Assembly: GCA_044228505.1 (NCBI GenBank)
Contig: JBGAUT010000001.1
Span: 172,113-236,112 of the forward strand
Source: Polyangia bacterium
Lineage (GTDB): Bacteria; Myxococcota_A; Polyangia; Palsa-1104; JAEUJZ01
Length of the DNA stretch: 64,000 nt
Reading direction: 5' to 3'
Shown here: positions 30,563 through 32,342 of the stretch, in pieces
How the letters are laid out: every line of letters begins with the position of its first letter
Position numbering within the stretch: position 1 is the first letter of the stretch
The notes under the pieces: generated by a model
What the model was told of the DNA's origin: nothing
Seen by the model: only the letters and a program-made list of their open reading frames with translations
The model's database searches: none
Made by a program: the position numbers and the translations under genes

Positions 30563-31783
30563 TTAGTGGGCCGCGCTCCATTCGATGCTTTTCAAGTCGA
30601 CGCCTTCTTGGACCATCTCCCACAGCGGCGACATCTCGCGCAGCCGACTCACCTTTTCAGTAGTCAGCTTGATCACGAAGTCCACTTCTTCGTCGGTGGT
30701 GAAGCGTCCCAGTCCAAACCGGATCGAGGTATGCGCCAGCTCCTCGCCGATGCCGAGTGCACGCAGCACATACGACGGCTCGAGCGACGCCGACGTACAC
30801 GCGGAACCCGACGACACCGCCACGTCCTTGAGCGCCATCAGCAGACCCTCACCCTCGACGTAGGCGAAGCTTAGGTTCGAGTTCCCAGGAAGCCGGTGTC
30901 CCACCGCGCCGTTGCGAAACACATGCGGCAGCGCCTGCATCAGCGCGTTTTCGAGATGGTCACGCTGACGAGCGATCCGCGCTGATTCCTCGGTCATTTC
31001 CTTCATCGCGATTTCGCAGGCTTTGCCGAATCCGACGATGCTCGGGACATTGAGCGTTCCCGAGCGGAGTCCGCGCTCATGCCCACCACCGTCCATCTGC
31101 GCTTCCAGACGAACCCGAGGCTTGCGACGCACGTACAGCGCACCAACGCCCTTTGGGCCATAGAGCTTGTGCGCCGTCAGTGACACCAGATCCGCCTGCA
31201 CATCAGTGACGTTGAACGGAACCTTGCCCACGCCCTGAACTGCGTCGGTGTGGAACAGCGCGCCGCGTTCCTTGACGATCTGACCGATTTCCTTCATCGG
31301 CTGAATCGTGCCGATTTCGTTGTTGGCGAACATCACCGAGACGAGGATCGTGCGGTCGGTCATCGCTGCGCGAAGTACGTCGGGACGGAGCAGGCCATCG
31401 GCTTCGACGGGCAGGTACGTCACCTCAAAGCCTTCGAGCTCCAGCCGCTTGCAGGTATCGAGCACTGCCTTGTGCTCGATCTGCGTCGTGATGATGTGGT
31501 TGCCGCGGTCTTTGTAAAAGTGCGCAGCGCCTTTCAGGGCGAGGTTGTTCGACTCGGTCGCTCCCGACGTGAACACGATCTCTTTGCCCGAGGCCCCGAT
31601 GAGCTGACCGACCTGCTCACGCGCATCGTCGACCGCTTTTTCTGCAGTCCAGCCAAAGGCGTGATTGCGGCTCGCCGCGTTGCCAAAGTGCGTCGTGAAG
31701 TACGGCAGCATCGCCTCGAGGACACGCGGGTCAACCGGTGTCGTCGAGTGGTAATCCATGAAAATCGGGAGCTTCAGCGCCAT
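30563..31783 (-). CDS. iscS: Cysteine desulfurase IscS
   Basis: [41 protein letters not shown]. Confidence 0.97.
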
Positions 31784-31793
31784 GTTTCGTCCT

Positions 31794-32342
31794 TTAACTA
31801 ACCAGCACCCCGGCCACCATCAGCGGCTGGGGTCCGTCGTGGCCGTGAATGCGGCAGCCACCACACTCGGAGGCGGGTATTTCCGGGCTACATACCTTGC
31901 ATCCGTCGAGGTAGCTGAGCCCGGCTTGCAGGTCGTGCTCTAGTCGACGGAGCTTGTCCATTTGTTCTCGCGTCTCACGCAGTTTTTGGTCGAGCAGTGA
32001 GCGCAGCTTGGTCATCGCCTCGATGCCGACTCGCTGCTCTTCTAGGTCGCGCAATAGCTGCGAGATTTCCCCGAGCGAGACATCGGCATCTTGGAGCCGC
32101 GTAATCCACTGCACTCGCTCGATGGCCGTCTGTGAATACAGCCGAAAGCCTCCGCGTGAGCGAATCACCGGCTTGAGCAGACCCAGTTCCTCGTATAGGT
32201 GGAGCGCCCGAGTGGTCTTGTTGCACAGCTCAGCGAGCTGACCAATGCGCAACAGCTTGTCGGGCCTTGGCTGCCCGCCTTCGCTTTCTCCTTCAGCCGG
32301 GGCTGTCGGGGTCGCTTGGTTTGTGGAATCCTTGGTCTGCAA
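31794..32342 (-). CDS. MerR-family transcriptional regulator with C-terminal Cx2Cx7Cx2C motif
   Basis: IGQLA...[23 protein letters not shown]; coiled coil; [19 protein letters not shown] start preceded by AAGGG; 10 bp upstream of iscS. Confidence 0.9.

Follow-up and report, generated by a model that had tools for sequence, protein, structure and literature searches.

A MerR-type regulator with a conserved four-cysteine motif heads the isc operon of a Polyangia bacterium and is a candidate iron-sulfur-sensing repressor

Introduction

Which protein controls iron-sulfur (Fe-S) cluster biogenesis when the gene at the head of the isc operon encodes a MerR-type and not an Rrf2-type regulator? This question is raised by a locus in a 64,000-nucleotide stretch of DNA from a Polyangia bacterium (assembly GCA_044228505.1, contig JBGAUT010000001.1, positions 172,113 to 236,112), which is called the window here and whose own numbering is used throughout. 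The control of Fe-S biogenesis has so far been worked out almost wholly for Rrf2 regulators (IscR, RisR) and SufR, and no description of a MerR-type regulator of isc or suf was found in a full-text literature search, with subscription journals outside its coverage. The comparative analysis presented here showed that regulators of this family are associated with Fe-S biogenesis genes throughout Myxococcota, and that the gene occupies an IscR-like position, opening the isc operon and having a predicted site of its own at the isc promoter. We favour, with slightly better than even confidence, the reading that the protein is a dedicated, autoregulated MerR-scaffold regulator of Fe-S biogenesis that acts as an Fe-S-sensing repressor and functionally replaces the Rrf2 proteins IscR and RisR.

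Results

The regulator gene is linked to Fe-S biogenesis genes

On the minus strand, positions 26843-32342 hold seven tightly packed genes in the order merR-iscS-iscU-iscA-hscB-hscA-fdx. Each assignment is supported by Pfam and NCBIfam, and IscS, IscU and HscA exceed curated NCBIfam equivalog or subfamily cut-offs. The genes are:

31794-32342, minus strand, MerR-family regulator gene with Pfam MerR domains, 182 amino acids, TTG start, first gene of the unit
30563-31783, minus strand, iscS, cysteine desulfurase (NF010611, 672.5 bits, cut-off 548)
30128-30535, minus strand, iscU, scaffold (TIGR01999, 229.6 bits, cut-off 192.4)
29784-30125, minus strand, iscA, A-type carrier (TIGR00049, 104.8 bits, cut-off 58.8)
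29237-29851, minus strand, hscB, co-chaperone (TIGR00714, 79.2 bits, cut-off 46.75)
27201-29174, minus strand, hscA, Hsp70-type chaperone (NF003520, 817.8 bits, cut-off 620)
26843-27235, minus strand, fdx, [2Fe-2S] ferredoxin, last gene of the operon (Pfam Fer2, 8e-14; TIGR02007, 102 bits, under the cut-off of 132)

A gap of 10 bp lies between the stop of the regulator gene (31794) and the ATG of iscS (31783), as had been claimed in the original prediction for a gene with a MerR helix-turn-helix, and no terminator-like site was found in this gap on the strand of the two genes. Contigs of four metatranscriptome runs (four studies) were placed on positions 29700-33300. They cover the regulator and isc genes, and two of them, which come from two studies, span the junction between the regulator gene and iscS: X3 (31662-32037, no differences) and X5 (31647-31949).

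A word-indexed search returned 355 homologues, and the names given for these are all Polyangia or Myxococcales-type metagenome-assembled genomes. The adjacency of merR and iscS, which the original prediction had proposed to survey across Myxococcota, was followed in one genome per species (295 relatives), from which the best 80 loci, with regulators of 48-88% identity, were analysed. Directly downstream of the regulator gene, iscS was found in 76/80 loci, mostly followed by iscU, iscA, hscB and hscA, and in one further locus (L020) a lone A-type carrier gene takes this place. The remaining three loci (L049, L053 and L079) end at contig edges within ∼100 nt of the regulator gene and were excluded from the linkage count, so that a Fe-S biogenesis gene lies downstream of the regulator gene in 77/77 assessable loci. 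No efflux or detoxification gene adjoins it in the 80 loci. Some genomes of family f41 carry two regulator copies, one adjoining a desulfurase-carrier cluster and one standing alone with its own site.

A predicted operator accompanies the regulator gene

Two copies of a palindromic element were identified upstream of the regulator gene, where they form a 31-nt inverted repeat (32340-32370 and 32412-32442, 87% complementary) that flanks a promoter-like TTGACC-17-GATACT. Scored with a position weight matrix (PWM), the two predicted operators are:

32341-32369, unstranded, main predicted operator O1, dyad centre 32355/32356 (40.9 bits, best in the genome)
32412-32442, unstranded, upstream predicted operator O2, dyad centre 32426/32427, just upstream of the -35 hexamer (32.2 bits)

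O1 extends over the predicted 5' leader with its ribosome-binding site and over the TTG start codon, and O1 and O2 are 71 bp apart. Upstream regions of 342 nt could be extracted for 79 loci and were searched for the operator core ACGTAAGGG with one mismatch allowed. The core is present upstream of the regulator gene in all 79 regions, compared with 192 of 5000 shuffles, and its matches number 158 inside the upstream windows against 19 in 551 kb elsewhere in the same loci. Alignment of 66 dereplicated sites gave a conserved block of ∼29 nt with its symmetry centre in the middle of an ACGT step; eight positions are invariant, including A-6, C-5, G8 and T9, while A-12 is kept in 55/66 and T15 in 64/66 sites. 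In ∼25 loci, the window included, a second site lies 64-76 bp upstream of the main one. When the PWM built from the aligned sites was run over the whole 6.78-Mb genome, only the two isc-promoter sites reached at least 14 bits, and the regulator therefore looks dedicated and local in this organism. A regulator dimer would be expected to bind the ∼30-bp dyad. The autoregulation suggested in the original prediction gains support from a family-specific predicted operator at the promoter, and regulation of Fe-S biogenesis by a protein non-orthologous to IscR is well supported by the comparative evidence.

Some variation was observed among the sites. In a soil clade (L022, L027, L029-L034, L041, L042 and L046) the core reads ACGTATGGG, and the ATG within it is the start codon of the regulator gene. 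Because of this the message of the soil clade would be leaderless or nearly so, with the operator overlapping the translation start, and since the start codon lies within the dyad, conservation of the dyad means more than conservation of a ribosome-binding site. An internal ACGT-NN-ACGT duplication gives 23 cases a second operator register, which overlaps the first at a distance of 6 bp and also scores. A 6-bp difference in half-site spacing between loci is odd for a single dimer-binding mode. In the genome under study (G000), a single exact 11-nt operator half-site was also observed off the isc promoter (contig C84, 95386-95396), which scores below 14 bits as a full site.

The regulator combines a MerR fold with a four-cysteine motif

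The MerR-type winged helix-turn-helix was identified by two Pfam models, PF13411 (MerR_1, 52.3 bits, 6e-14, cut-off 21.6) and PF00376 (MerR, 42.6 bits, 5e-11, cut-off 28.2), and the MerR dimerisation-helix domain by PF09278 (MerR-DNA-bind, 32.6 bits, 1e-7, cut-off 25.4). The Pfam model for the Rrf2-type winged helix-turn-helix (PF02082) gave no match in the protein. An AlphaFold model based on an alignment of 22 sequences, with a mean predicted local distance difference test (pLDDT) score of 80.7, contains the winged helix-turn-helix followed by one 45-residue helix (residues 106-150), in agreement with the coiled coil of the original prediction, and the regulator presumably forms a dimer through this helix. 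The two functional parts map as follows:

32046-32249, minus strand, winged helix-turn-helix DNA-binding domain, residues 32-99 (Pfam MerR_1; pLDDT above 90)
31839-31901, minus strand, putative sensor motif C148-x2-C151-x8-C160-x2-C163-x2-H166-G-H168, directly after the dimerisation helix

In full the motif reads C148-KV-C151-SPEIPASE-C160-GG-C163-RI-H166-G-H168. The four cysteines and the HGH of the original prediction could thus be confirmed, while the spacing between the two pairs is eight residues and not the seven given there. The four cysteines are invariant in the 22-sequence alignment (47-77% identity), and little or no variation is seen at E159, the HGH and a C-terminal P-x2-V-x-G; the N-terminal 30 residues, by contrast, vary. 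CxxC-x8-CxxC with exactly eight residues between the pairs was found in 119 of 120 retrieved homologues, the remaining one having Tyr in place of the first Cys, and xxHxH follows the motif in 99 of the 120, most of the others showing a shifted His pattern. Judged from these sequences, the four-cysteine (Cys4) feature is far beyond chance.

Assignment to a named MerR subfamily failed, as every NCBIfam cut-off was missed by far. The scores and cut-offs for metal sensors were 61.8 and 143 bits for ZntR, 58.4 and 151 for CadR-PbrR, 58.1 and 151 for MerR, and 52.4 and 147 for CueR. The SoxR model TIGR01950 scored 39.7 bits against a cut-off of 116.9, and the motif is CX2CX8CX2C and not CX2CXCX5C; the HspR model NF047375 scored 38.4 bits against 105. 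By sequence, the closest proteins in the PDB are MerR of B. megaterium (4ua1, 3e-19), PbrR691 (5gpe, 1e-16), CadR and CueR, with SoxR weaker (7e-8). Foldseek returned the same set, and its fold matches include MtaN, PbrR, CadR, BmrR and SoxR (2zhg, 3e-5). An ESM Atlas search with the C-terminal 45 residues gave no match of 0.9 or more; a SoxR-fragment cluster reached 0.84. The matches were treated as leads and not used.

Two alternatives concern what the four cysteines would bind. In the first, they form a thiol/zinc redox switch that is either metal-free or binds Zn(II) in a structural or regulatory role, oxidant-induced disulfides release the repressor, and isc is induced by oxidative stress and not according to cluster occupancy. 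Such a switch would fit the two CxxC pairs, which are a classic zinc-thiolate pattern, and the best NCBIfam matches, which are ZntR-type models; a paralogous group of Cys4 MerR proteins beside unrelated genes, described below, also suits a generic redox or metal module. We nevertheless rate it as unlikely, if still deserving attention, as both the family and its operator are tied tightly and exclusively to isc, suf and carrier genes, as would be expected of a cluster-occupancy sensor, and as the switch leaves the conserved HGH and the PLMVAG tail unexplained. Redox sensing and Fe-S sensing are mutually compatible.

The second alternative is a direct sensor of a mononuclear metal (Fe(II), or Zn, Cd or Cu) of the CueR, ZntR or PbrR kind that happens to control isc. 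The closest sequence and fold matches are metal-sensing MerR proteins, and HMMER aligned C151 and C160 to the two metal-binding-loop cysteines of PbrR691, so that the two loop cysteines that such sensors carry at the C-terminal end of the dimerisation helix are present. The third ligand cysteine, at the N-terminal end of the partner dimerisation helix, was not found. In the alignment with 5gpe, the place of the PbrR691 helix cysteine, which we take to be the third, cross-subunit ligand of divalent-metal MerR proteins, is occupied in the regulator family by an invariant Met110, beside a nearly invariant Ala109. Because of this replacement, all four candidate ligands would come from one chain, as in SoxR. 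As the protein also scores far under every metal-sensor cut-off (at best the 61.8 bits for ZntR), adjoins no efflux or detoxification gene in the 80 loci and has an operator that does not lie in a long spacer (see below), a plain metal sensor is considered improbable.

The promoter geometry points to a repressor

A consensus scan upstream of the regulator gene predicted the following promoter elements:

32401-32406, minus strand, -35-like hexamer TTGACC, with TTGAC kept at the same distance in relatives
32378-32383, minus strand, -10-like hexamer GATACT, after a 17-bp spacer

Using simple criteria, a sigma-70-like promoter was predicted in 49/79 regions. The predicted spacer is 16-18 bp in 45/49 of these, and in 47/49 the centre of the dyad falls between +2 and +22 of the predicted start; it never falls within the spacer. 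Positions 32367-32513 are uncovered in all four RNA runs and one contig stops at 32366, 5 bases short of the predicted start; the contig edge and the uncovered stretch are a weak hint of a start near 32371.

A textbook MerR activator requires a 19-20-bp spacer, according to the available part of PMC11672702 (section 3.2.3). The dyad was not found inside a 19-20-bp -35/-10 spacer in the predicted promoters (17 bp in the window), and since the operator lies outside such a spacer, classical MerR activation is unlikely here. Activation of isc on a signal, by a protein that binds over an over-long spacer and untwists the DNA, is the default of the family in the same section of that source. It is nonetheless quite improbable for this locus, given the predicted spacer lengths, the dyad centre downstream of the -10 hexamer in 47/49 promoters, and the clade with its ATG start inside the dyad, where no room is left for a promoter around it. 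The arrangement of O1 over the leader and start and O2 beyond the -35 hexamer is, as far as can be judged from predicted elements, probably that of a repressor, which would work through occlusion, roadblock or looping. That the palindrome is a leader RNA hairpin masking the ribosome-binding site, with the MerR protein acting elsewhere, would suit its overlap with the ribosome-binding site and start codon and is very improbable all the same. Against it stand a leader with no folding advantage over shuffles (-4.5 kcal/mol, z = +0.77, 149/200 shuffles at least as stable), a second copy upstream of the -35 hexamer, where it would remain untranscribed, and the site upstream of suf genes.

The regulator and the SUF system are largely complementary

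In the genome under study, which is 93.9% complete, SufB was not found, and ISC may thus be its only Fe-S assembly system. Three Rrf2 matches were identified, all on contigs other than that of the window, consistent with the statement in the original prediction that the window holds no Rrf2 gene. Their neighbours are a truncated globin in one case and a cytochrome c with a molybdo-oxidoreductase in another; the third, a weak match, falls within a 626-amino-acid frame. None of the three adjoins Fe-S biogenesis genes.

In Myxococcus xanthus, which among studied organisms is the closest relative, the Rrf2 protein RisR is encoded at suf and is a Fe-S-cluster-dependent repressor of isc and suf, which recognizes T(t/g)GAC-N7-GTCC(t/a), and the isc operon has no regulator gene at its head, as described in the accessible part of PMC9973013. 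This RisR motif was found in 0/79 related upstream regions, and its bare core in 11/79, against a rate of 0.10 in shuffles, which is the chance rate. Rrf2 control of the operon, with the RisR motif absent from the isc promoter and the three Rrf2 genes away from Fe-S genes, was set aside as a candidate for which no supporting evidence could be found. The claim that a MerR protein takes the place of an Rrf2-type IscR thus holds for the position of the gene and fails if taken to mean an organism that lacks Rrf2 proteins. As RisR, encoded at suf, controls the M. xanthus isc operon, which does not itself begin with a regulator gene, the wording "instead of IscR/RisR" is preferable.

The distribution of the regulator was determined in an even sample of 401 Myxococcota genomes, in which matches with E ≤ 1e-36 were called strong and those from 1e-20 to 1e-31 weak. 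At E ≤ 1e-20 a match was found in 135/401 genomes, 104 of them with a strong match and 31 with weak ones only; among the matches listed, the strong ones nearly all extend to profile positions 163-169, and the weak ones inspected end near 153-163. SufB is present in 241/401 genomes, namely in 15/104 with a strong regulator match compared with 226/297 of the others. Family f2 has the regulator in 29/29 genomes and SufB in 1/29, family f20 has the regulator in 0/34 and SufB in 34/34, and family f26 has the regulator in 9 genomes and SufB in the other 3. The regulator and SufB are thus largely complementary across the sample, which is a pattern and not a test, as related genomes are not independent.

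Nine of the 15 genomes with both the regulator and SufB were searched up to 5 kb upstream of sufB with an operator threshold of 12 bits. A predicted operator was found just upstream of suf genes (sufB or sufA) in 5/9, with scores of 24.5-38.8 bits: 35-39 bits in G071, G076 and G121, which belong to one genus, 24.5 bits in G106 and 38.5 bits in G325. The last of these has, on one strand of locus L097 (C4:16412-31000), the operator, sufA-sufB-sufC-sufD-sufS-sufT, a MerR-type regulator gene and a second class-V cysteine desulfurase gene. Both solutions occur on contig C4 of G165, where the isc genes begin with a MerR-type gene (1336874-1337374) and sufB (1602777-1604153) is directly preceded by an Rrf2 gene (1602271-1602663).

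A related group of Cys4 proteins lies beside unrelated genes

A paralogous myxobacterial MerR group (L084-L089, in genomes G085, G240, G380, G275, G165 and G087) lacks the HGH and has a conserved C-terminal LPRAL-x2-LW. In these loci no Fe-S link was found; the neighbours are an FAD oxidase, DUF2203 with GTP cyclohydrolase I, an SLT transglycosylase and a Lon-like protein, and in L084 the paralogue gene is convergent with the oxidase gene.

Discussion

Proposed mechanism

Position, context and analogy make a Fe-S cluster on the four cysteines the most likely sensing mechanism. The cysteines at the end of the dimerisation helix would sit where SoxR holds its [2Fe-2S] cluster and metal-sensing MerR proteins their metal, and, perhaps together with the histidines of the HGH, they probably ligate a Fe-S cluster supplied by the ISC machinery. 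The cluster-loaded protein would then repress isc, by occlusion or looping and not by the MerR-type twisting of an over-long spacer, and the repression would be lifted when the cluster is lost, be it through iron shortage, oxidative stress or a high demand for Fe-S clusters. Feedback of this kind would resemble that exerted by IscR and RisR.

Several observations weigh against this proposal. The C-terminal 35 residues (148-182), which include the motif, are poorly modelled (pLDDT 59-76), and CxxC...CxxC is also the commonest structural zinc pattern. The L084-L089 paralogues, with 26-32% identity, carry CxxC-x8/9-CxxC after the dimerisation helix beside unrelated genes; the Cys4 module is thus older than the Fe-S link and not specific to it, and since these proteins carry a similar motif away from Fe-S genes, the motif by itself is no proof of Fe-S sensing. 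Promoters and transcription starts are predictions throughout, and 30/79 regions have no promoter by the criteria used. The RNA contigs show presence in the libraries, cannot prove a single transcript and may contain DNA. At suf, three of the five positives come from a single genus, and the loci of G241, G126, G165 and G281 have no operator of at least 12 bits in the 5 kb upstream of sufB.

Comparison with known regulators

Like IscR of E. coli, an Rrf2 protein with a [2Fe-2S] cluster, the MerR-type regulator is encoded by the first isc gene, is presumed to be an autoregulated repressor that reports Fe-S status, and has a Cys/His-rich ligand set near the dimerisation helix. The ligand set of IscR consists of three cysteines and one histidine. 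The two proteins differ in that fold and family are unrelated, a MerR winged helix-turn-helix being used here, and in the operator and the candidate ligands, which are Cys4 plus HGH. With RisR the regulator shares the phylum and the proposed task, and in some genomes an operator at both isc and suf. RisR differs in belonging to the Rrf2 proteins and in being encoded at suf, and its motif was not found upstream of the regulator genes. Rrf2 regulators have been recruited repeatedly to Fe-S gene clusters according to the part of PMC9973013 that was available, in whose main text the word MerR occurs 0 times.

SoxR has the same fold and likewise carries four cysteines in a short loop directly after the dimerisation helix of one protomer. 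It differs in that it activates from a long-spacer promoter, in its targets, which are soxS or redox genes and not Fe-S biogenesis genes, and in the motif, CxxC-x8-CxxC here and CIGCGCLSxxC in SoxR as given in the available sections of PMC11672702; in these SoxR is listed as the Fe-S-containing MerR protein, and MliR and NimR are named as unconventional members. The metal-sensing proteins (MerR, PbrR691, CadR, ZntR and CueR) are closest by sequence and their metal loop aligns with the two central cysteines, whereas the regulator has two extra flanking cysteines and the HGH, no efflux genes beside it and an operator outside the spacer.

HspR is likewise a MerR-family protein encoded in an operon with an Hsp70/J-protein pair. 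It represses the dnaK operon through inverted repeats at the promoter and not by spacer distortion, and to our knowledge it has no Cys4 motif; the regulator differs from it by the low score against the HspR model, and no sign of a chaperone co-repressor was seen here. MliR of Bizionia argentinensis is a MerR-like protein tied to iron homeostasis that lacks an effector domain, metal sites and cysteines, as far as the accessible text of PMC9478572 goes, and it differs in having no link to isc or suf.

More broadly, and tentatively, as we place it somewhat short of an even chance, the family may be a third, independently recruited class of dedicated Fe-S regulators beside the Rrf2 proteins (IscR, RisR) and SufR. 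It would consist of a MerR repressor that reads cluster supply with a Fe-S cluster on a new Cys4(His) motif, acts through one ∼30-bp dyad at isc and in some lineages at suf or A-type carrier genes, largely replaces the Rrf2/SUF arrangement in Myxococcota, and is the second Fe-S-binding MerR type after SoxR, one that represses without distorting the spacer. If so, the same feedback logic arose anew on a third protein scaffold, the MerR metal-binding loop has a wider chemistry, and a second example of a MerR member as a plain repressor is added. The regulator occurs in about a quarter of the sampled Myxococcota genomes (the 104/401 with a strong match), mostly in genomes without SufB.

Neighbouring genes

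The longest hscB frame shares 68 nt with iscA (29784-29851). Since the conserved J-domain begins ∼25 residues into this frame, translation of hscB probably starts further downstream than listed. Downstream of fdx no transfer RNA gene was found, unlike in the M. xanthus isc operon as described in the accessible part of PMC9973013, and the gene past fdx is a convergent Ser/Thr protein kinase gene (25122-26846, plus strand). The divergent neighbour of the regulator gene (32518-34815, plus strand) encodes a 765-amino-acid metallophosphoesterase/5'-nucleotidase with a Cys-rich insertion.

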